Origin: Candidatus Tritonobacter lacicola | Lineage (GTDB): Bacteria; Auribacterota; Tritonobacteria; Tritonobacterales; Tritonobacteraceae | Assembly: GCA_030765135.1 (NCBI GenBank) | Contig: JAVCDC010000009.1 | Coordinates: forward strand, 5,682 to 69,681 | Reading direction: 5' to 3' | DNA length: 64,000 bases | In this document: piece after piece, positions 1-28,191 of the stretch | Layout of the letters: every line of letters starts with the position of its first letter | Numbering within the stretch: the stretch's first letter is position 1 | Notes under the pieces: generated by a model | Seen by the model: the letters and a program-made list of their open reading frames with translations, nothing else | Databases searched by the model: none | Told to the model about the DNA's origin: nothing | Translations under genes and position numbers: made by a program

Positions 1-431
1 CTCCGGCCCTTTTTCTCCCGAGAAGATCTCGACATCGCCCGGACCAGCAGTGCTCACAGCCCGGCTCTCCACACTGATTGCAGTACTGTCCAGCTTTCTC
101 AAATCCTCCCTGGAGAGCTCCTGGCCGCTGGCGAGTTTCTTAACAAGGAAAGAGGCGTCGCTAGAGGAGCTGGGCGAGGGTGTAGGCACCTGGCCGAGGC
201 AAGGGGCCATCGCAAGGAAGAGCACCAAACCAGGGATAACGATAGACCTCATGATCTCCCCTCCTTTCATTCTCCCGATAAATGTCGCATATCCCGGGAG
301 GGGAGTTGTCACTGAAATGTAAAAGGATAGTAAAAAAATCCGGACAGTCTTAAGCGGTATAGAAGAAATACGCTCAGGCACTTACGTGTGGTCCACCGCG
401 CACCTGAGCTGTTACCAACCTGTCCGGAATT

Positions 432-1079
432 TTATTTAACGCCTACGGGCATGAGGTAGAGCGGGACTTCCTCTATGCCGAGGATCTTCTTAACAGCGTC
501 GTCGGAAAAGGCTCCAACGGCAACGGTCCCGAGGCCCAGCGCCGTCGCCTGGAGGTATATGTTCTCTCCCGCGTGCCCCACCTCGATATCGACGTACCGC
601 ACGCCCCTTTTACCGTACACCCTCGTCGTCCTCTCGTAACGCGCTGCAAGAACTATTGTTGCCGGGGCGGCGGCGACCCAACCCTGACCGTACGAGGCTC
701 TTGCCAGTCCGGGGCGTACGTCCCTGCCCGAGACCATCCGGAGGGCGTGCCTTTCAGGGATGTATTGATATACGCCCGGGGCAAGCCCCTCGACCTCTCC
801 GGCAACAAGGTAAGCTGTCAGTGGATAGGTAGCGCCGGCCGATGGTGCGGACCTGAACCCCCTTTTCTTTTCGGTTATACCCTGGGCGGCCCAGAGGAGC
901 TGTGAGACCTGATTGAGGGTCAGCCCGGTTTTTTTATAGGAGCGGATCGACCTCCGGTTTGAGATAGCCTCCTCGACCGACATCACGCCCTTTATCAGGG
1001 GTTCCGGCAACTTTATAAGATCGTTTGCACTGCTCATGCCCGACACCAGGAAAGCGACAACACAAAGTACTGTCTTCAT
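432..1079 (-). CDS. nitroreductase-family protein with N-terminal signal peptide
   Basis: ORF 432..1106. Probable start at the internal Met (MKTVLCVVAFLVSGMSSA, signal-peptide-like). Nitroreductase-fold hallmarks: EEAISNRRSIRSY (FMN-binding R-S-x-R), later ...TYPLTAYLV... and C-terminal LYLMPVG. Confidence 0.7.
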   Translation of the reverse strand: MKTVLCVVAFLVSGMSSANDLIKLPEPLIKGVMSVEEAISNRRSIRSYKKTGLTLNQVSQLLWAAQGITEKKRGFRSAPSAGATYPLTAYLVAGEVEGLAPGVYQYIPERHALRMVSGRDVRPGLARASYGQGWVAAAPATIVLAARYERTTRVYGKRGVRYVDIEVGHAGENIYLQATALGLGTVAVGAFSDDAVKKILGIEEVPLYLMPVGVK

Positions 1080-1153
1080 TATATATTGTCTCTGCCTGAT
1101 AAGCATATCTTACCCGGGATGTACTCGTTCTTGCAGTATTATTGCCGGCTTGA

Positions 1154-2458
1154 TTACTTTGATTCTTCAGCCTTCCGCTTATTCTCAAGTTTCCGAAGCT
1201 GTTCAAATCTCTGTCTCGCAATCTTATCTGCCCTGCGCTTTTTCTCCAGGATCTCCCGCTCTTTCTCCCTCTCCTCCTCCTCTCTCTTGATTCTATCCAG
1301 ATTCGATTTTTCCGTCTTTATCCGCCGCACCTTGAGCTCCAGTTCCCGCTCGACCAAGCGGATGTCTTCGGAGATGACTGCGTTTATGTATATGACGCTG
1401 GTGTCCAGGTCGCCGGCCTTATAGTAAAGGACTGCTATCCTGCACCGCACCCTCTGGGCCGTGATCAGCGGGGCCGTGCTCAGGGCTTCGTTGTAGTATT
1501 CGATGGCCGCCTTGGGCTTCTTCAGAAAGAACTCGTAGAGTACGGCTAGACGGTACGGCGGGATGTAGCTTTGGAGGAAGTCCTTCTCTGCCTGGAGATA
1601 TATCTTCGCCGCTTTCGAGAAGTCACCGTTTCTCGTAAGCTCCTCTCCTTCGGAGAGATAGTCTTTCAGCTTCCGGGAGATGTCCCTCTCCTGGAAGTAA
1701 TCGCTCGATTCGCGGAGGAGCTCCAGCTCGTAGTTCGCCATCTTCCTGTCCGGTTCTCCCAGATCCTTTGTCCTCACGTATGTTTGCCATAGCTTGATTG
1801 CCTCGTCTGTCTGACCCATCTTCGCATAGCATTCGGCCAGCTCGCGGTGAACGGCGAGGTCGGCCACGTACCGGGCCGAAGACACCGCGTACTCGTAGTG
1901 GCGTGTAGCTTCCTCAAGCCGGGGGAGCGACTTTTCAATGGAGGCGAGCTTCCCGCATACGGATGCCATCCGCAGCTGAACACGGGGGTTATCCGGTTCA
2001 AGGATAAGGGCCTTGTGGAACATCTCCCTGGCTCCCTCGATATCCCCCCGCTCCGACCTTCTGAGCCCCTCGTTAACGTAGTCGGTCACGGACTGTGAGC
2101 CGAGCCTCAGCTTGCCGGCCAATGCCTTATCCTTGACAAGCGGCACACCGGAAAAATCCGAGATCGCCCTGCTGAAGCACTTGTTCGCCTCGGCCTCCCT
2201 GCCAAGCTTCTCAAAACATATCCCCTTCCTGACGAGGGACTCTCCGGCAATTTCGCTTCCCCGAAGGGGGCCGTCCGTTATCTTGCTGTAGGTCCCTATG
2301 GCGTTTTCCAGGTCGCCGAGGCCTATTTCCTGGTAGAGGCCGAGATAGAAGAGGTCGCTCCCTTCCCCCATGCCGTCGCGGGGGACTGCTTCAACCGGCC
2401 GGAAAACCGTCGCGCACGCGATCAGGATCGCCGCGCATAAAGTATATGTCCTGTTCAT
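1154..2458 (-). CDS. TPR-repeat protein, secreted, with K/E-rich coiled-coil C-terminus
   Basis: Signal-peptide-like N-terminus (MNRTYTLCAAILIACATVF). Repeated A/Y/L-rich 34-aa TPR-like units (AxxYY..A......A). C-terminal ~60 aa are extremely K/E/R-rich (EKEREILEKKRRADKIARQRFEQLRKLENKRKAEESK). Confidence 0.65.
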   Translation of the reverse strand: MNRTYTLCAAILIACATVFRPVEAVPRDGMGEGSDLFYLGLYQEIGLGDLENAIGTYSKITDGPLRGSEIAGESLVRKGICFEKLGREAEANKCFSRAISDFSGVPLVKDKALAGKLRLGSQSVTDYVNEGLRRSERGDIEGAREMFHKALILEPDNPRVQLRMASVCGKLASIEKSLPRLEEATRHYEYAVSSARYVADLAVHRELAECYAKMGQTDEAIKLWQTYVRTKDLGEPDRKMANYELELLRESSDYFQERDISRKLKDYLSEGEELTRNGDFSKAAKIYLQAEKDFLQSYIPPYRLAVLYEFFLKKPKAAIEYYNEALSTAPLITAQRVRCRIAVLYYKAGDLDTSVIYINAVISEDIRLVERELELKVRRIKTEKSNLDRIKREEEEREKEREILEKKRRADKIARQRFEQLRKLENKRKAEESK

Positions 2459-3138
2459 CAGCCAACGAATTTATATCCCGCGCCGTAAACAGTGATTATA
2501 TGCGCTGGATCGTTAGGGTCCTTCTCGATTTTCTTCCTCAACTTCAGGATAAGGTTGTCCACGGTTCGTGTCGTTGGATAGACATCGAAGCCCCATATCT
2601 CGTTGAGGAGCTCCTCTCGCGTGACCACGTTGTTCCTGTGCGATATGAGGTGTTTGAGTATCTTGTTCTCGAGGGCGGTCAGCTTCGTCTTTTTCCCCCT
2701 TCTGATAACCTGGTAGCTCTCGAGGTCTATCTTGACATCTCCGAGGGAGTAATGGGTTATTTCGTCGGAGCTGATCCCGCCTCTCCTCAGGAGGGCCCTG
2801 ACCCTGGCGAGCAGCTCGCGCACGCCGAATGGCTTTGTCATATAGTCATCGGCCCCGAGCTCCAGCCCGACCACCTTGTCCACCTCCTCGCCCTTGGCGG
2901 AGAGCATGAGGATGCGGATGGAAGGCATCTTTTCCTTGATCCTGCGGCAAACGTCGTAGCCGCTGAGGTCCGGGAGCATGATGTCCAGTATAACGAGGTC
3001 GGGAACTTTTTCCACAGCCATCCGGACACCCTCCTCGCCGCTCATCGTGCAGATTGCCTCGAACCCCTGGGTCTTGAAAAAATCCTCCAGGCTGCTCAAC
3101 AACTTCTTCTCATCCTCTACGATCAGAATCCGCTCCAT
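2458..3138 (-). CDS. OmpR/PhoB-family response regulator
   Basis: Receiver motifs (ILIVEDE...DLVILDIMLPDLSGYDV...LSAKGEEVDKVVGLELGADDYMTKPF). C-terminal winged-helix (LTALENKILKHLISHRNNVVTREELLNEIWG...VDNLILKLRKKIE...YGAGYKF). Confidence 0.9.
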   Translation of the reverse strand: MERILIVEDEKKLLSSLEDFFKTQGFEAICTMSGEEGVRMAVEKVPDLVILDIMLPDLSGYDVCRRIKEKMPSIRILMLSAKGEEVDKVVGLELGADDYMTKPFGVRELLARVRALLRRGGISSDEITHYSLGDVKIDLESYQVIRRGKKTKLTALENKILKHLISHRNNVVTREELLNEIWGFDVYPTTRTVDNLILKLRKKIEKDPNDPAHIITVYGAGYKFVG

Positions 3139-3150
3139 TTCAATCCTCCA

Positions 3151-5376
3151 TTATATTTCAGGACGCCGGCGTATCGGCAGAACAATAGTGAAAACACTTC
3201 CCTCGTCTCTCCTGCTCTGTACACGAACTTCTCCGCCATGGGCCTCGGCAACGTGCTTGACAATGGCGAGGCCGATACCGGCACCCTTTCCCGAAAGCTT
3301 AGCCGTTTCCTTCGGGCGATAAAACTGATCGAAAATCCTGTCTATATCTTCCGGGGCGATCCCGATCCCCCTGTCCTTCACGCTGATTGTTATGTTGCCT
3401 TCCTTCCGGCGCAGCTCCACCCACACCGTTTTCTCCTCCCGGGAGAATTTGACGGCGTTATCCAGGAGGTTGATCAACGCCTGGCTGATCGCGTCCGCGT
3501 CTATCTCGAGGCTGGGGATGTCCTCGTCCGTCCTGTACACGATGTCGAAGCCTTCAGACCTTACATATTGGCGGAACGCCCTGACGGTATTCAATATAGT
3601 CTCCCCGATGGCTGTGGATCCGAAATTATACGTCTTTCTTGCCGCTCCAATCATGGAGAAGTCCAGGACGTTGTCGATAAGCCTTGAAAGCCTCTCGCTC
3701 TCGGACGCGATGAGCCTGAAATACTCCTGCTCCTTCTCGCGGCTGGAGACCGCGCCCATTTCGAGCATCTCGCCGACGGCCCTGATTGTCGCGAGCGGTG
3801 TCCGCAGCTCGTGGGAGACGCGGGAGACGAAATGGCTCTTGAGCCTGGCAAGCTCGGTATCCCTCTTTATCGAGCGATGGATCATATAAATGCCGAGAAA
3901 AACGACCACTGCAAGAAAAAATATAGAAGTGAGCCGCGTCATCCTTTCTTTACTGGCGACCTCGAAGAGAAGACCCTGTTTTTTATAGGAGATCCTGACT
4001 GCCCATGACGGCAAGGCGGGGGCAAGGGTTTCCGTTTTTTCGTAGCCCGAGCTTGAGGCCGCGTCGCCGGCAGCAGCCACTACATCCCCGGTGGGATCAA
4101 GCACGGTTACATTGACATCGCCTTCGGATTCGACCATCTCCTCCAGGACATCTCTGACCTCTCTACTGAGGGCGGCTTTATCAAGCACAACAGCGATCAC
4201 GATCCGCCTGCCCGTATCGCTCGCCGCCAGGGCACTGCAGAGGAGGAGGACCTCCTCTCCGTCAATGACTATCGATACCGGCCTGAATTCCTGCGCCGAT
4301 TTCCCATCCTCTCCCAGCAGCCTCTGGAAATCAAAGCGGGCGGCTGCCCCGAGGGCCCCCATTTCCTGCGCCGATCTCTTCCTGTCCAGCCACAGCCCCA
4401 GGAGGTCCTCGTACTCCGGCCCGTATCGCCGGAGAAGCCTCTCGGAGCCCAGCAGCTTGTCCATCTCCCCATCTACCATCGAGGCGTAAAAGACGGCTTC
4501 GTGGACGTTGCCGGCAAGCTCTCCGCCGGCAAGAGCTCTCATGATATCCAGAAGGCGCTCGGCCGCGCTGCTCTCGTATCCCAGTATCCTGTCTATAACC
4601 GCCAGCTGGTACAGCGGCAGGAGCTTGAGTGAAAGGCCGCCGCAGAAGACGATGGCTTCCCTTTTTCGCATGATTTCCCTGTAATATTTTTGCGCCTCCC
4701 TGTATTTTCCCATTTTAAAGAAGCACCGCGCGACCGCGTTATCCGCCAGGGCCCTGCACTCTGTCGCTTCGCCGATGTCGAGTGCCCGCTTGTAATCCGC
4801 GACGGCTCCCACCGGGTCGTTTGAGCCGAACTCCTTTCTGCTCCCATCCTTCATCGCCTGGAAGAATTTATCGTTCTCCCTGTCCGACGCGCTCGCTATG
4901 CCGGCAGATGGGACCTTCTCCCCCGCCGTGCCGAATGGGAATAGCGGCAGGAGACGGTGGTCCAGGATAAAAAAGCTCTTGAACACGGGGCACGCTTCAA
5001 CCGCCTCGGAGATCTCTTCCACTATCTCATTCAGGGGCTGGTCCGCGCAGATGCGTTCGTCGAGATCGGTTTCGCAGCCGGCCAGGCCTGCGGTCGCCAT
5101 TTTTTTTAAAGCAAGCCCGAACCTCTCCAGATGGCCTTCGATTTTTTTTCCAATGTCCTCCGTCTCCTTCACCACCACGGATCGTACGGTAAGGTAGGCG
5201 AGGGGTATCGTGGGTAAAAGAACGCAGAGGACGAAGAGGAGGATCAGCCGCCCCCTCCTCAGCCTGCCGAAGATCGATAAGAGTTTTTTCGATATCAACA
5301 GATCAGCTCCATATGCCGGAAATGGCCAGACCGCAGGATGGGCATTTTCCCTCTCGCATACGATTCTTTGAGACAA
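3151..5376 (-). CDS. sensor histidine kinase with large TPR-like extracytoplasmic sensor region
   Basis: TM segment near the N-terminus and a second TM (FFLAVVVFLGIYMI) before the HisKA H-box (SHELRTPLATIRAVGEML). HATPase_c N/G boxes (NLLDNAVKF...DRGIGIAPEDIDRIFDQFYR...GAGIGLAIVKHV). The ORF's annotated 5' end overlaps the next gene by 74 nt, so the true start may be further downstream (see the rejected entry at 5303..5376). Confidence 0.85.
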   Translation of the reverse strand: MSQRIVCERENAHPAVWPFPAYGADLLISKKLLSIFGRLRRGRLILLFVLCVLLPTIPLAYLTVRSVVVKETEDIGKKIEGHLERFGLALKKMATAGLAGCETDLDERICADQPLNEIVEEISEAVEACPVFKSFFILDHRLLPLFPFGTAGEKVPSAGIASASDRENDKFFQAMKDGSRKEFGSNDPVGAVADYKRALDIGEATECRALADNAVARCFFKMGKYREAQKYYREIMRKREAIVFCGGLSLKLLPLYQLAVIDRILGYESSAAERLLDIMRALAGGELAGNVHEAVFYASMVDGEMDKLLGSERLLRRYGPEYEDLLGLWLDRKRSAQEMGALGAAARFDFQRLLGEDGKSAQEFRPVSIVIDGEEVLLLCSALAASDTGRRIVIAVVLDKAALSREVRDVLEEMVESEGDVNVTVLDPTGDVVAAAGDAASSSGYEKTETLAPALPSWAVRISYKKQGLLFEVASKERMTRLTSIFFLAVVVFLGIYMIHRSIKRDTELARLKSHFVSRVSHELRTPLATIRAVGEMLEMGAVSSREKEQEYFRLIASESERLSRLIDNVLDFSMIGAARKTYNFGSTAIGETILNTVRAFRQYVRSEGFDIVYRTDEDIPSLEIDADAISQALINLLDNAVKFSREEKTVWVELRRKEGNITISVKDRGIGIAPEDIDRIFDQFYRPKETAKLSGKGAGIGLAIVKHVAEAHGGEVRVQSRRDEGSVFTIVLPIRRRPEI

Positions 5377-6427
5377 CGAAGTGAACCCTGTCGATCAGGA
5401 GAGAGCCGCACATCGGGCAGAAGGTGCTGTTGTATTTATGTCCCGGCACGTTGCCTATATAAACGTAATTGATCCCCTCATCAATGGCGATCTGCCTGGC
5501 ATCCTCCAGGACGCTGACGGGGGTGGGCGGGATATTCTTGAGCCGGTAGGCAGGATAAAACCTGTTGAAATGGAGGGGAACGTCCTCCCCCAGCTCGGCC
5601 TTTATCCATCGGCACATCTTTTTTATTTCCGCCATATCGTCATTGAGTGTGGGAATAACCAGGTTGACTATTTCGAGGTGGCGTCCGCTGCGCTTTATCG
5701 CCTCCAGGGTCTTCATGACAGGACCGAGAGAGGCGGAGGATACGGAATCGTAAAATTTTTCGGTGAACCCCTTGAGGTCCACGGTCACGGCGTCCATGTA
5801 ATCCAGAATCTCGACGAGGGGAACAGCAGAGATGGAGCCGTTCGTGTGAAAAACAGCCTTCAGGCCGCGCTCCTTGCCGAGGCGGGCAGTCTCCCTCATG
5901 TATTCATAGAAAACCGTCGGCTCGCTGTACGTGAAGGAGAGCGTCGGGCAGCCCCGTCTTTTCGCGCGCGAAACGATATCTGCCGGTTCGCAATCGTATG
6001 AATAAGTATCCTCCACCCGGCTCTGCGAAATCTGCCAGTTCTGGCAAAACCTGCAGCGGAAGTTGCAGCCGGCGGCCGCGGTACAGAATATGTCCGTGCC
6101 GGGCAGCATGTGAAATACCGGCTCCTTTTCTATCGGATCGATCTGGACGGAGCATATCCTGTTGGCGGTAAGCGCGTACAGGGTCCCGCCCATATTTCTT
6201 CTGTTCCTGCAAAACCCCTCCCCTCCGTCGGGTATAACACACCGGCGAAAGCATAGCCCGCACTCAACCGGGCCGGAGCCGAGCTTCCTGTAGTGGGATG
6301 CTTCGACGTGCCCGGCCCCGGTGGGCCTGACAAGTCTGACCCCGGCCCCTGCGGCCAGCGCCGCACAGAAGCCCCTCTTCAGGGCCTCGCGCCTGGATAT
6401 CCGATACCCGCCCCATTCATCACACAT
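5303..6427 (-). CDS. radical SAM enzyme, PFL-activase-like (AmmeMemoRadiSam-type signature) with twin-arginine-like N-terminus
   Basis: CNFRCRFCQNWQISQ (CxxxCxxC plus the QNxxIS signature of the PFL-AE-like / AmmeMemoRadiSam subgroup). Additional N-terminal CGLCFRRC and C-terminal CPMCG...CPSCG cysteine pairs. N-terminus SRREALKRGFCAALAAGAGV resembles a Tat signal. Confidence 0.8.
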   Translation of the reverse strand: MCDEWGGYRISRREALKRGFCAALAAGAGVRLVRPTGAGHVEASHYRKLGSGPVECGLCFRRCVIPDGGEGFCRNRRNMGGTLYALTANRICSVQIDPIEKEPVFHMLPGTDIFCTAAAGCNFRCRFCQNWQISQSRVEDTYSYDCEPADIVSRAKRRGCPTLSFTYSEPTVFYEYMRETARLGKERGLKAVFHTNGSISAVPLVEILDYMDAVTVDLKGFTEKFYDSVSSASLGPVMKTLEAIKRSGRHLEIVNLVIPTLNDDMAEIKKMCRWIKAELGEDVPLHFNRFYPAYRLKNIPPTPVSVLEDARQIAIDEGINYVYIGNVPGHKYNSTFCPMCGSLLIDRVHFVVSKNRMREGKCPSCGLAISGIWS

Positions 6428-6492
6428 ATAACCTCTGCCTCAACGTAGCGTTGTGCTTGCAGGCCTTGATCTGCCCTGCAAGCAAGATGAGA

Positions 6493-6705
6493 TCATAGTA
6501 CCCAGAGGATAAAACAAATCAGAAGGGCGCATGCCACAAGGAAAAACCACACACCCTTATGGAAACCGGTCCTGAGGTTCAGGGAATTGCCGCAGTATAT
6601 ACAGAGAAGGCTCTCTGCCGGCGCTTCCATCCCGCAGTGGGGACACTTCACCAGATCGCGGCTCTCGCCCATGCGAAACGTCTCCTGGATTTCCGGGGTT
6701 GGCAA
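6493..6705 (-). CDS. small zinc-ribbon membrane protein
   Basis: CPHCG...CIYCG double CxxC zinc ribbon followed by one hydrophobic helix (WFFLVACALLICFILWVL). Confidence 0.45.
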   Translation of the reverse strand: MPTPEIQETFRMGESRDLVKCPHCGMEAPAESLLCIYCGNSLNLRTGFHKGVWFFLVACALLICFILWVL

Positions 6706-6708
6706 CTG

Positions 6709-7176
6709 TCAGTGGAACTTGCCGGCGAACCGGGCGATCATGTTTGCCTCTTCATCGCTCGAGGCCATAAAATCGAACTTCGTCCTGTAGGATCCTTCGC
6801 TCTCCGGCTTCCGCACCTCGGCAATCCTGCCGTAGCAAATAAACCTCTCCGAGTCCTCGGAAAGAACAATCTCGAGCTCCACGTGGGTTCCGACGGGAAG
6901 CTCGCGGTCATATTCGAAGAGGAGCCCGCAGACCTTGACTCCCCCCTTCTTCCTGTGTTCCTTCATCTTGACATAGACGACGTAATCACTTTCGCGCCGA
7001 GAACAGAGGCGGCAGGTAATCCTTGACCAGGGAGGGGCCCTGAGGTATTTCAGGTATTTTATTTCCTTGAGTTTTCTCTCGTCCATTCGGCGCTTATCTC
7101 CCGGAGTATTTCCGCTTTTAGCAGCATCCCCATATCTTGTCGTGAAAAGTATAACAACCCGCGGAATGGTACGCAA
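6709..7176 (-). CDS. PilZ-like domain protein (degenerate motifs)
   Basis: RRMDER matches the PilZ RRxxxR motif and the size fits, but the canonical DxSxGG motif is absent (only ...VCGLLFEY...). Weak call. The 1-nt spacing to the upstream zinc-ribbon gene suggests a gene pair. Confidence 0.35.
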   Translation of the reverse strand: MRTIPRVVILFTTRYGDAAKSGNTPGDKRRMDERKLKEIKYLKYLRAPPWSRITCRLCSRRESDYVVYVKMKEHRKKGGVKVCGLLFEYDRELPVGTHVELEIVLSEDSERFICYGRIAEVRKPESEGSYRTKFDFMASSDEEANMIARFAGKFH

Positions 7177-7258
7177 GGCGGGCGATCGATTTTCCGGGGA
7201 GAAAGTTTCCGCGTTCAGGATGGGCGGAAAAGGTTGGATGCGGGCCGTGGCGGGCGGT

Positions 7259-7696
7259 TCAGGCTTCTGAGGGGTGCTCCTGGAAAACCGTGGCGAGGAG
7301 GCGAGCGTAGCAATCCCCGATGTTATTGTTTTCCATGTTTTCCTCCTTGGCCGGCAGCTCGAGCTCCCTCAGTTTATCAACATAAAACCTATAATCTATA
7401 ATGTCGATGTAGAACGGAGCTCCCGGATGATGCTCCGCAATAACATCTATCCTGTCATCATAGGTTTCCTTGTTTAGCTCGAGCCCGATGCAGCCAAGGT
7501 TCCGCAGCTTCCGCAGGTCCGATACGAGTTCGTTCGAGCCGCGCGCGAATATGCTGGAAAGCTCCTCGAAGCTGGTATTTACTATCCCCGTCCGCGGGTT
7601 GGCCTTTATAACGAGTTCGAGAAACAGGACCTCGAGATAGGGCTCGAGCGGCTCGCGCCCTTTCATCGTAAAAATTTCTTTCACCTGCTTCTTCAT
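7259..7696 (-). CDS. hypothetical protein
   Basis: 145-aa ORF with no recognisable motifs. Orientation matches its neighbours. Confidence 0.4.
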   Translation of the reverse strand: MKKQVKEIFTMKGREPLEPYLEVLFLELVIKANPRTGIVNTSFEELSSIFARGSNELVSDLRKLRNLGCIGLELNKETYDDRIDVIAEHHPGAPFYIDIIDYRFYVDKLRELELPAKEENMENNNIGDCYARLLATVFQEHPSEA

Positions 7697-10756: not shown

Positions 10757-11141
10757 GGGGGCGAAAAGGTTTCGACTGATCTAGGAAACCGGTAGCGGCA
10801 TGCAGAGGTTGAGAGGAGGCCTCTTCCCGAAAGGGACCCTGAGCTTGTCGAAGGGTAAAACACCTCTCACACCAAGTAACTGCAGACGAGCAGTTCGCAC
10901 TAGCTGCTTAAGCAGCTACGTCCACGGGTCCGGCCTGCGGGGCCCGGATGGACGACCGGAGCAGGCTGGCCTCGAACCCGAGCCACCGGGGCAAGAGGCG
11001 AGATCGTCTTCGTGGAGGCTAGTTCTCCGTAGGTCCTGTCCGCCGGAGTTGCGGAGAGCGAATGAAAAAGACGGACTAAGCATGTAGAGGCTTCCGGTGA
11101 CATATTTCAGGACGCGGGTTCGATTCCCGCCGCCTCCACCA
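10757..11141 (+). ncRNA. ssrA: tmRNA (SsrA)
   Basis: 5' GGGGGCGAAAAGGUUUCGAC and 3' tRNA-like end GGACGCGGGTTCGATTCCCGCCGCCTCCACCA. Internal tag reading frame GCA GAC GAG CAG TTC GCA CTA GCT GCT TAA encodes ADEQFALAA* (canonical ...ALAA tail). smpB lies immediately downstream on the opposite strand. Confidence 0.9.
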
Positions 11142-25928: not shown

Positions 25929-26010
25929 GCCGGGCTGGTCGATACGAATACCTTGACTCTCTCCGGTTCGCCCGCTTGTGACAATAAACCAGTCACCGTA
26001 TCTCTCTTTG

Positions 26011-26083
26011 CGCGCCCAGCAGGACTCGAACCTGCAACCACCGGATTAGAAATCCGGTGCTCTATCCGTTGAGCTATGGGCGC
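26011..26083 (-). tRNA. tRNA-Arg (TCT)
   Basis: Reverse complement reads GCGCCCATAGCTCAACGGATAGAGCACCGGATTTCTAATCCGGTGGTTGCAGGTTCGAGTCCTGCTGGGCGCG. Anticodon stem CCGGA/TCCGG, loop TTTCTAA, anticodon TCT. Confidence 0.85.
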
Positions 26084-27050: not shown

Positions 27051-27325
27051 GATCCCAGCCCTTTTGAGAGTATTGTATCAACCGGTTGTGGATATTTACA
27101 ACTTATTGTTCTCCGTCTCTTCCAGTTCAGCCGGACGGCTCCGCATCTTCGCCAGTTCCTCGACGAGCCGCTTCTTTGTCTTCTCCTTGTCCCTCATCCT
27201 TCGATTGCCTCAAGAGCGGAAGGGATTTAAAAAGTACCGGAAACCATATTGATGGTCGCAATTACTGAACGCCACTCGAACTATCTTTGGCATAATTCAT
27301 TTTTGAATTTCAAAAATAGTTGATT

Positions 27326-27826
27326 TTATTTTGAGTCAATATAGTGGATTGCTTCGTCTATCACAGAAATATCCTTTATCTTAGAAGAAAAAATCTCACC
27401 TTTGATTTTTTCTATCTCGTCTATGCTTTCAACAATAAAATCTGAAAAGGTAAAGATGAACGGGTGAATCCAGTCCTCAACTAATTTTCCATGAAAGACC
27501 ACATTGGGACGCCTATGATGAGTATCTTTAGGAAGAATGGAAATAACCGGTTTATTAAAATACTTTGCAATAACGATTTCTTGGGCGGTTCCTACCCCAA
27601 GTATTTCTTCGGCGTTAACTATCACTAATGAACTATCTTTTATGTGTCTACAATCTTGGCCAACAACTGCTAAAAAATCACCTTCATCTAATTCTTTATG
27701 GTAGGGTTCGATGAAATCAGCTTCAAAAAATTTCTGCAGAAGTTGCTTGTATTTACTTCTCCAGTCATTAAATATTTTTGCTTCCGCGTCTCCTTTTGGG
27801 ACACTGCCTGCCAAATAAATTTTCAT
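27326..27826 (-). CDS. nucleoside 2-deoxyribosyltransferase-like (NDT/flavodoxin-like fold) protein
   Basis: N-terminal MKIYLAGS, and GVGTAQEIVIAKYFNKPVISI matching the NDT family core (D/S-GTxxExGxA...KPV). The gene and its flanks are conspicuously AT-rich compared with the rest of the window. Confidence 0.6.
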   Translation of the reverse strand: MKIYLAGSVPKGDAEAKIFNDWRSKYKQLLQKFFEADFIEPYHKELDEGDFLAVVGQDCRHIKDSSLVIVNAEEILGVGTAQEIVIAKYFNKPVISILPKDTHHRRPNVVFHGKLVEDWIHPFIFTFSDFIVESIDEIEKIKGEIFSSKIKDISVIDEAIHYIDSK

Positions 27827-27937
27827 AGTTTTTCTATTTTAACAAATCATCCCAAGGCAGTGCCGGATGCGGCTAAATCTGCCTTCGGCAGATTTGACGC
27901 AGAACCGCCCACCTTTCCCAACTTAAGTTCAAGAGTT

Positions 27938-28015
27938 GGTCGGGGCGCCGGGATTTGAACCCGGGGCCTCCTGCTCCCAAAGCAGGCGCGCTAAACCGGA
28001 CTGCGCCACGCCCCG
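27938..28015 (-). tRNA. tRNA-Pro (TGG)
   Basis: Reverse complement reads CGGGGCGTGGCGCAGTCCGGTTTAGCGCGCCTGCTTTGGGAGCAGGAGGCCCCGGGTTCAAATCCCGGCGCCCCGACCA. Anticodon loop TTTGGGA gives anticodon TGG; CCA is encoded. Confidence 0.8.
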
Positions 28016-28157
28016 ATTTTCTCCATACCATTAGGTTCTGCAATACTTTTTACTAATGAAACCGCCTTATTGCCCCCTCTTCACTTCGTTCATCGGGATC
28101 TAAGAATTTCATGGTATTTAGCTTCGCTACGCTCGCTAAATACCTGAACTTCTAAGA

Positions 28158-28191
28158 CGGACTGCGCCACGCCCCGATTTTCTCCATACCA
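28158..28191. repeat. 34-bp direct repeat of the tRNA-Pro 5' end plus upstream flank (second copy; first copy 27997..28030)
   Basis: CGGACTGCGCCACGCCCCGATTTTCTCCATACCA occurs identically at 27997..28030 and 28158..28191. Copy 1 spans the first ~19 nt of the tRNA (minus strand) plus 15 nt upstream. The ~127-bp spacer is AT-rich. Confidence 0.85.

Follow-up and report, generated by a model that had tools for sequence, protein, structure and literature searches.

A candidate 2'-deoxynucleoside 5'-monophosphate N-glycosidase of the nucleoside 2'-deoxyribosyltransferase fold, encoded by an apparently imported gene of Candidatus Tritonobacter lacicola

Introduction

Nucleoside 2'-deoxyribosyltransferases (NDTs) share their fold with nucleotide N-glycosidases such as DNPH1 (also called Rcl), whose catalytic core is a triad of Tyr, Asp and Glu (PMC10603095). 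NDTs hold the 5'-hydroxyl group of their substrate through Asp or Asn (Asp92 and Asn123' in the L. leichmannii enzyme, LlNDT), whereas hydrolases of 2'-deoxynucleoside 5'-monophosphates (dNMPs) have uncharged residues there (PMC12884076). The phosphate is bound by Ser98 and the other subunit's Ser128' in DNPH1, and by Ser97 and Arg23 in MilB (PMC10603095). In phages, the deoxynucleoside triphosphate (dNTP) hydrolase DutZ is encoded adjacent to or fused with DmtZ, a dAMP N-glycosidase (PMC12884076), and phage NDTs co-occur with the HD_3/YfbR-like DatZ and with PolA (bioRxiv 2025.10.22.683976). Here, we analyse a gene for a 166-amino acid (aa) protein of this fold in a 64-kb stretch of DNA from Candidatus (Ca.) Tritonobacter lacicola (contig JAVCDC010000009.1 of assembly GCA_030765135.1), hereafter called the window.

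Ca. Tritonobacter lacicola belongs to the phylum Ca. Auribacterota within the PVC (Planctomycetes, Verrucomicrobia and Chlamydiae) group and was described from the anoxic zone of Ace Lake, Antarctica. It is predicted to import nucleosides and nucleobases, and to catabolise DNA by means of deoxyribose-phosphate aldolase and a microcompartment (PMC9324843). A first-pass annotation of the window had described the gene as NDT-like and horizontally acquired, had placed it in an AT-rich patch directly 3' of a tRNA-Pro gene, and had suggested profile searches, structure comparison and a comparison of homologue neighbourhoods. From these and further analyses, we propose, at a probability of about 0.5, that the protein is a DNPH1/DmtZ-like dNMP N-glycosidase, possibly with an added phosphodeoxyribosyl transferase activity.

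Results

ORF calling recovered the 166-aa open reading frame (ORF) with the sequence that had been quoted for it. Its ATG start codon is supported because the MKIYLAG N-terminus is conserved across 56 homologues; a 162-aa version of the protein is recorded in NCBI under Candidatus Tritonobacter lacicola. A Pfam search matched residues 3-103 to positions 1-102 of the 117 positions of PF05014 (Nuc_deoxyrib_tr), with an E-value of 0.0095 and 16.5 bits, which is under the gathering threshold of 28.8 bits, and a precomputed match to this family is present in a minority of the homologues. Searches with NCBIfam, PADLOC and PHROGs profiles returned nothing meaningful (0 families for PADLOC). Searching the PDB sequences with the protein and with a profile of 57 sequences yielded no NDT or DNPH1 chain, and the top matches, SelB and ABCB1, are spurious.

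The predicted structure gave a clear signal. An AlphaFold2 model built on 57 homologues had a predicted local distance difference test score (pLDDT) of 94.8 and a predicted template modelling score (pTM) of 0.89. Foldseek matched it to 42 PDB chains at E ≤ 1e-3, all of them NDT, DNPH1/Rcl, BcmB or MilB, with a probability of 1.0, E-values down to 1e-5 and TM scores of 0.5-0.76. The NDTs were those of C. thermalis, D. psychrophila, B. psychrosaccharolyticus, L. leichmannii and T. brucei. Matches in a viral structure library (BFVD) were to phage and giant-virus NDTs, including the NDT/DmtZ-type protein of Gordonia phage Ghobes. The model is decisive for membership of the NDT superfamily at the level of the predicted fold, so that the NDT hallmarks of the first-pass annotation stand there, while their support in the sequence itself is weak.

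We next describe the family to which the protein belongs. It comprises 322 clusters at 90% identity, and only 234 representatives (50% identity, E ≤ 1e-3) were found among 1.84 billion proteins. Almost every source annotates the protein as hypothetical. Fifteen positions are invariant in 57 sequences (P10, K11, W22, R23, E48, G56, D58, G79, E83, K88, P99, K100, W119, F123 and D129), and Y4 (≥90%), HHRR (103-106) and DWIHPF (118-123) are nearly so. The motifs W22-R23, K88, P99-K100, H103-H-R-R106, D118-W-I-H-P-F123 and D129 are specific to the family. In the model, a β-hairpin insertion at residues 105-120 and an extra C-terminal helix are both absent from classical NDTs, and the C-terminus varies in length and sequence across the family. 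We treat the family as distinct because its Pfam match is sub-threshold, and our literature searches returned no paper that connects NDT-like proteins with the candidate phyla radiation (CPR), DPANN or Auribacterota. It is an uncharacterised family with motifs and an insertion of its own inside a well-known superfamily, rather than a new type of system.

Scanning a single genome for each GTDB species, we identified 71 homologous loci (labelled L001 and so on below where they have to be told apart). More than half were from Patescibacteria/CPR (n = 36), followed by named DPANN archaea (n = 11), Chlamydiota (n = 5) and unclassified archaea (n = 3); the Proteobacteria, Methanosarcinales, Desulfobacula, Actinomycetota and unclassified bacteria together had 16. 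The T. lacicola genome itself is not among these GTDB-representative matches, which bear no verdict on other Auribacterota. At most loci, the GC content of the gene equals that of its flanks, so the gene is native there. This shows a small, distinct and unnamed family whose native hosts are mostly Patescibacteria (CPR), DPANN archaea and Chlamydiota.

To place the active site, we turned to profile alignments made with hhalign. These equate Y4 with Y24 of DNPH1, D58 with DNPH1 D80 and LlNDT D72, and E83 with DNPH1 E104 and LlNDT E98, while the loop G7-S-V-P-K-G12 falls on G27-S-I-R-G-G32 of DNPH1. The placements are consistent with the Pfam alignment and with the order of secondary structures. 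A putative triad is found where the fold would have it, with Tyr4 after strand β1, Asp58 in helix 2 and Glu83 at the N-terminus of helix 3, and all three residues are retained in 16 fusion proteins. We conclude that the protein is a predicted catalytically competent member of the NDT superfamily, outside Pfam PF05014 as curated. Ribo-specific MilB and BcmB carry Phe at the position of the Tyr. The presence of Tyr4 instead suggests a probable specificity for 2'-deoxy substrates.

On the 5' side of the substrate, position 75 aligns, with low confidence, with LlNDT Asp92 and DNPH1 Ser98. The Asp by which NDTs bind the 5'-hydroxyl was not found there: the 56 homologues have mostly Lys (n = 35), Arg (n = 13) or Gln (n = 6), and the Ile of the window protein is unique among the 57 sequences. 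Conserved basic residues include K11 in the loop after β1, K88, K100, H103 and R/K106 just after strand 4; in DNPH1, it is this region of the neighbouring subunit that contributes Ser128'. A putative 5'-phosphate pocket would have no acidic residue at the 5' side and would draw its ligands from the post-β1 loop, the loop before helix 3 and the neighbouring subunit. In the family, position 75 lacks Asp, GSVPKG resembles GSIRGG, and K11, K100, H103 and R/K106 are conserved, whereas the two phosphate-binding serines of DNPH1 are not.

As homologues may carry information on the substrate in their partners, we surveyed 20 long representatives of remote family members for fusions. Seven were fused to a NUDIX domain and two to a TehB/TPMT-like methyltransferase, one was a tandem duplicate, and one fusion each was found to Maf, an HD_3/YfbR-like 5'-deoxynucleotidase, a phosphoribosyltransferase, NrdR (zinc ribbon and ATP-cone), DUF1653 and a cupin. 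The fused NDT-like domains belong to the same family, since they retain Y4, G7, W22, D58, G79, E83, K88, HPF and D129. The suggested comparison of neighbourhoods also brought out NUDIX as a recurrent partner. Clustering of flanking ORFs gave it as the commonest neighbour (13 loci, Pfam-verified), and a scan for NUDIX boxes identified 19 ORFs in 15 of 70 loci, all but one on the same strand. Ten of these lay within 1 kb of the gene, three at 1-2 kb, two at 2-3 kb and four at 3-4 kb, whereas the 4-6 kb range contained none; the bins held comparable amounts of sequence. An association with S-adenosylmethionine (SAM)-dependent methyltransferases was rejected: it was partly an artefact of a methyltransferase-NUDIX fusion that joined two clusters, and the remainder was weak and heterogeneous.

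The fusion and neighbour partners all have the free nucleotide pool as their target, with nucleoside 5'-monophosphates being the products of NUDIX and Maf. The first-pass annotation held that the activity could not be decided from sequence alone, with which we agree, but the fusions and neighbourhoods of the homologues make a nucleotide (5'-phosphate) substrate more likely than nucleoside salvage or NAD processing. The coupling to an enzyme that converts (d)NTPs to (d)NMPs is seen at the level of the family, not in the window, where the gene is solitary.

Several points weigh against a DNPH1/DmtZ-like activity. The substrate class is predicted from genomic association and one aligned position, and the hhalign comparisons with individual sequences of DNPH1 (checked against PDB entries) and NDT have little statistical weight (probability 4.5-6%). 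The phosphate ligands Ser98 and Ser128' of DNPH1 are not conserved in the family, Asp75 is present, as in NDTs, in five remote fusions (four NUDIX fusions and the tandem duplicate), and Foldseek ranks true NDTs slightly over DNPH1. The HD_3 fusion is equally compatible with a transferase that uses nucleosides. Finally, the window copy lacks a NUDIX partner and is the only one with Ile, in place of Lys, at the putative phosphate-side position 75; with neither a promoter nor a Shine-Dalgarno motif of its own (see below), its activity or expression in Tritonobacter may differ from that in the donors.

Some of these points would fit a genuine NDT (EC 2.4.2.6-like) that swaps bases between deoxynucleosides for salvage, as Borrelia BB0426 and the enzymes of lactobacilli do (PMC2764106 for the Borrelia precedent), an activity useful to nucleotide-auxotrophic symbionts. 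The sole Pfam signal is to PF05014, some homologues are automatically annotated as NDTs, and the family is overrepresented in host-dependent lineages, which have to salvage precursors of nucleic acids. Deoxynucleosides could be supplied by the fused HD_3/YfbR 5'-deoxynucleotidase or by a neighbouring HAD hydrolase, and the phage NDTs that co-occur with HD_3 and PolA offer a parallel. Although this reading is plausible, we consider it unlikely that the family works on nucleosides, as the equivalent of Asp92 is Lys, Arg or Gln in the family, with Ile in the window copy, basic residues are conserved in large number, and the commonest partners, NUDIX and Maf, yield 5'-monophosphates rather than nucleosides. 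In addition, the C-terminus is variable, although a C-terminal carboxylate is catalytic in classical NDTs.

The abundance of conserved basic residues, together with a family-specific β-hairpin that bears HHRR, might alternatively point to an N-glycosidase acting on DNA or RNA ends, on damaged bases, or on metabolites related to ADP-ribose or phosphoribosyl pyrophosphate. Distant homologues in Saccharibacteria (28-35% identity) are core syntenic genes in the order polA, methyltransferase/NUDIX, NDT-like gene, HAD hydrolase, unknown gene, fpg, holA. These repair and replication neighbours, and a methylpurine-DNA glycosylase gene (Pur_DNA_glyco) in L001, would suit such a role, and the NUDIX partners might be ADP-ribose pyrophosphatases. 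The fusions to Maf, HD_3, phosphoribosyltransferase and NrdR nevertheless indicate the pool of free nucleotides, no nucleic-acid-binding domain can be recognised in this small protein, and no enzyme with the NDT fold is known to us to attack polymeric nucleic acid. We therefore find this substrate class very unlikely.

Unlike the Saccharibacteria genes, close homologues have no conserved neighbours and are often located in variable regions. The surroundings of L001 contain a type IIG restriction-modification gene and pairs of HTH_3 and cargo genes, those of L002 an integrase and ParB, and those of L004/L005 an HNH nuclease, a LexA-methyltransferase, CYTH, NUDIX and ASCH. L001 and L006 are the same contig, of which positions 1-7658 hold four HTH_3 genes of 68-71 aa. 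Each of these has its own, unrelated cargo gene, which encodes the NDT-like protein in one pair and a SAM methyltransferase, a protein of 384 aa and a META-domain protein of 335 aa in the others. A toxin-antitoxin pairing with HTH_3 was rejected as not general, as HTH_3 was directly upstream in only two distinct loci of about 70 (L001/L006 and L027).

That low count also speaks against a toxin or defence effector that depletes NAD+ or nucleotides, borne on defence islands under the control of a partner, for instance an upstream HTH, in the manner of the NDT-like effector of retron Ec86 or of TIR/SLOG NADases. NAD+-depleting NDT-like effectors do exist (PMC13276650), the closest homologues lie in variable regions (L001, L002 and L004), the gene is highly mobile across phyla and domains, and some relatives have weak, sub-threshold matches to SLOG cluster 4. 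Against this stand the lack of a PADLOC match, the lack of a reverse transcriptase, sensor or immunity gene nearby in the window, the core syntenic position of the Saccharibacteria homologues between polA, HAD, fpg and holA, and the absence of the family from phage and plasmid collections (INPHARED and PLSDB). Solo transfer, intact upkeep and purifying selection are moreover hard to square with an unregulated toxin, and we judge an effector function very unlikely.

After establishing the family, we looked at how its gene came to be in the window (Table 1). The AT-rich patch in a GC-rich window was borne out: the GC content of the ORF is 0.351 against 0.567 for the window, and no other 500-nt stretch of the 64 kb has a GC content as low as that of the ORF region (minimum 0.342 at 27301, z about -5). 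GC at third codon positions (GC3) is 0.31 in the ORF and 0.62-0.78 in six neighbouring genes. The gene is indeed directly 3' of tRNA-Pro, with 110 nt between the tRNA and the ATG on the same strand. A fragment of about 570 bp that includes the ORF aligns with positions 4977..5546 of L001/L006, on a contig of metagenome-assembled genome (MAG) GCA_043820855.1 with a flank GC of 0.36, and the alignment continues past the ORF at both ends. At the upstream end, a stub encodes a peptide identical to the C-terminus of the HTH_3 protein (68 aa) whose gene lies before the homologue in L001. At the downstream end, MNYAKD corresponds to MDYAKN, with which the next gene of L001, Pur_DNA_glyco, begins. As both stubs match L001 genes, the donor had the order HTH_3, NDT-like gene, Pur_DNA_glyco, of which only about 570 bp was captured.

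Table 1. Positions of the NDT-like gene, the fragment that carries it and other features, counted from the first nucleotide of the window.
Feature	Position	Strand	Remarks
NDT-superfamily ORF, 166 aa	27326..27826	-	putative triad Tyr4, Asp58, Glu83
Ile75 codon	about 27602-27604	-	54/56 homologues have Lys/Arg/Gln
Imported low-GC fragment, ~570 bp	27281..27851	.	84.8% nucleotide identity, 572 columns
Stub of donor upstream gene	27834..27851	-	GATGATTTGTTAAAATAG, encodes DDLLK*
Stub of donor downstream gene	27282..27300	-	ATGAATTATGCCAAAGATA (MNYAKD)
tRNA-Pro(tgg), intact	27937..28015	-	ARAGORN + Rfam
tRNA-Arg(tct)	26010..26083	-	ARAGORN + Rfam
40-nt direct repeat, first copy	27991-28030		95% identical to second copy
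40-nt direct repeat, second copy	28152-28191		161 nt from first copy
Hairpin	27277-27323	-	RNA fold -15.2 kcal/mol, z = -2.4
Tandem paralogue, 147 aa	26139-26582	-	29% identity to the next, E 8e-16
Tandem paralogue, 145 aa	26613-27050	-	
IS200-like Y1 transposase, 229 aa	9658-10347	-	PF01797, E 1.8e-15
tmRNA gene	10757-11141		

In a neighbour-joining tree, the window sequence forms a tight clade with L002, L006 and L007, nested in a radiation of intermixed CPR and DPANN sequences. The bacterial CPR and archaeal DPANN copies are 55-66% identical and are interleaved in the tree, which implies frequent inter-domain transfer among ultra-small symbionts. GC3 of the window copy has barely shifted (0.31 versus 0.26 in L001), so the transfer is recent, and as dS between the two is 0.77, the actual donor was a relative of L001. 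The corresponding dN/dS of 0.08 shows that purifying selection has acted on the coding sequence over most of the path. Taken together, the analysis shows a recent entry into Tritonobacter as a fragment of one gene and two neighbour stubs. By these sequence comparisons, the horizontal acquisition proposed in the first-pass annotation is well supported, through composition, the identity that extends into the donor stubs and the tree. The adjacency to a tRNA, by contrast, is not evidence of integrase-mediated insertion. The locus is an unusually clean case of a recent transfer from a CPR-like donor into another phylum, with a donor gene order readable from stubs at both ends of the insert.

Tritonobacter has one of a few GC-rich genomes in which the gene is an AT-rich outlier. 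In the clearest other case, L007 (positions 5995-6500 in a MAG labelled Chlamydiota), a gene with a GC content of 0.406 lies between flanks of 0.655 and encodes a protein 83% identical to that of the window. The nucleotide similarity between the two is restricted to the ORF, which alone makes up the patch. Further AT-rich single-gene patches in GC-rich genomes occur at L009, which is of lower identity, L041, L054 and L038. This suggests repeated solo acquisitions of the NDT-like gene.

Candidate vehicles were considered and rejected. A tRNA-targeted island is not indicated, as no integrase was found near the patch and no att-type direct repeats bracket 27281-27851. An integron cassette was dismissed for lack of an attC-like site and because the ends of the fragment are stubs of donor genes. 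Neither a phage nor a plasmid vehicle was found in the collections that we searched: the family was not found in INPHARED or PLSDB, and IMG/VR contained only three weak relatives. A scan of metagenome contigs for the empty site in related Auribacterota, anchored on the neighbouring fumarase, returned only unrelated organisms at ≤59% identity. The only repeat that involves tRNA-Pro is a 40-nt direct repeat that consists of the first 25 nt of this tRNA and 15 nt upstream of it, so that a partial 5' copy lies upstream of the intact tRNA. The two copies do not enclose the NDT-like gene. The repeat looks like the scar of an older insertion or duplication at tRNA-Pro, and the adjacency to this tRNA may mark a recombination-prone spot.

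The identical protein was found on at least 24 contigs from several JGI, ENA and Logan samples, with a constant gene order of TPR protein, 241-aa protein, NDT-like gene, two small proteins and fumarase; the insertion is therefore carried throughout the sampled Tritonobacter population. Between tRNA-Pro and the ATG, we detected no sigma-70-like promoter or terminator, and no obvious Shine-Dalgarno motif was found upstream of the ORF. A survey of host genes for this motif was uninformative (16 of 35 crude ORFs). With no promoter or terminator detected in between, expression of the gene, if any, is probably by read-through from tRNA-Pro. Immediately after the stop codon, a hairpin straddles the 3' junction of the fragment; it has no T-run and was hence not called a terminator.

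The gene might thus function in CPR/DPANN-type donors and be a neutral, poorly expressed and not-yet-decayed passenger in Tritonobacter. The imported piece is random-looking, with its stubs of donor neighbour genes and without a promoter, terminator or Shine-Dalgarno motif upstream. The capture is young by its donor-like GC3, K75I is unique to this copy, and the low dN/dS may stem mostly from donor lineages. However, the ORF is intact and retains every invariant residue, the identical protein recurs in a constant context in several samples, and a site directly downstream of a tRNA gene could drive transcription. The lone gene has also been retained independently in the GC-rich L007 and, at lower identity, in L009, which suggests that it is selectable by itself. 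A mere passenger is, on this evidence, unlikely.

Other features of the window were also recorded. The Rfam scan of the region revealed two tRNAs and nothing else. Two tandem paralogues are located between the NDT-like gene and tRNA-Arg; each has a hydrophobic N-terminus and a C-terminal LLKL, and they have a GCP motif in common. Neither matches a Pfam family, and their GC3 of 0.62-0.65 is slightly under that of neighbouring genes. The second-lowest GC patch of the window (about 0.43) contains an IS200-like transposase gene, about 400 nt from the tmRNA gene.

Discussion

In the proposed reaction, Glu83 would act as the nucleophile, aided by Tyr4 and Asp58, and form a covalent (deoxy)ribosyl-enzyme intermediate. 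The N-glycosidic bond of a dNMP would thereby be cut, as by DNPH1/Rcl and phage DmtZ, to give a free base and deoxyribose 5-phosphate, possibly with transfer of the latter to another base. In native hosts, this may be the second step after a NUDIX, Maf or HD-type nucleotide hydrolase in the sanitation or salvage of the nucleotide pool, along a route from (d)NTP to (d)NMP and on to base and sugar phosphate. In Tritonobacter, one may speculate that the enzyme supplies deoxyribose 5-phosphate to the DNA-catabolic deoxyribose-phosphate-aldolase route of the host, which would explain the retention of a solitary gene.

Extending this to the family as a whole is more tentative, and we do so with some doubt. 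The family could be the DNPH1/DmtZ counterpart of ultra-small, host-dependent microbes (CPR, DPANN and Chlamydiota), which would form with NUDIX a two-step filter that purges modified or unwanted nucleotides scavenged from the host, or converts them to sugar phosphate and base. Being selectable on its own, the gene would then have spread across domains and to free-living, GC-rich bacteria. If true, a cellular prokaryotic branch would join the NDT-fold nucleotide N-glycosidases (DNPH1, MilB/BcmB and phage DmtZ), concentrated in organisms that are unable to make nucleotides and depend on scavenged ones. This would provide a handle on how CPR and DPANN organisms clean their dNTP pools and gain carbon from nucleotides. 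For enzyme engineers, the family is a new scaffold related to NDT biocatalysts.

Among the described systems, DNPH1/Rcl (the human and rat 2'-deoxynucleoside 5'-phosphate N-hydrolase) has the same fold as the window protein (Foldseek E-value of 4e-5, probability 1.0), an equivalent Tyr/Asp/Glu triad, a similar loop (GSIRGG for GSVPKG) and no Asp on the 5' side. Its role as a sanitiser of the nucleotide pool is the one proposed here for the window family. It differs in sequence, with 12-17% identity and no significant match, and in Ser98 and Ser128', which the window family does not conserve. The latter has a two-residue insertion before the nucleophile (GxGTxxE), the hairpin at 105-120 and the invariant W22, K88, HPF and D129, and is about 20 residues longer, with an extra C-terminal helix.

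DmtZ, the dAMP N-glycosidase and deoxyribose-5-phosphate transferase of Z-genome phages, likewise belongs to the NDT superfamily and acts on a dNMP, as proposed for the window family. Its coupling to the NTP pyrophosphatase DutZ is comparable to the coupling of the window family to NUDIX and Maf, and the Ghobes protein is a structural match of the window protein in BFVD. DmtZ has, however, Asn for the Asp of the triad, is phage-borne and serves Z-DNA synthesis (PMC12884076), whereas the window family is cellular and has NUDIX, not a dUTPase-like protein, as its partner.

Type I/II NDTs (L. leichmannii, C. thermalis, D. psychrophila and T. brucei) are the best structural matches (E-value of 1e-5; TM 0.57-0.62 by query and up to 0.76 by target) and have the Glu nucleophile and the Asp in common with the window family. 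The latter is set apart by its sub-gathering match to PF05014, Lys, Arg, Gln or Ile in place of Asp92, a C-terminus that is not conserved, and the extra motifs and hairpin. MilB and BcmB, N-glycosidases of CMP and hydroxymethyl-CMP, have the same fold (E-value of 1e-4) and a nucleotide substrate, and Arg23 in the post-β1 loop of MilB, which binds phosphate, is comparable to the invariant Lys11. They are found in antibiotic biosynthesis clusters, whereas the window family, which has Tyr4, lacks such a cluster. The NDT-like effector of retron Ec86 and other NADase effectors, finally, resemble the window protein in having an NDT-like fold in mobile, variable genomic regions. Unlike the retron effector, the window gene is solitary, without a reverse transcriptase, non-coding RNA, partner or PADLOC match, and has been retained after solo transfer.

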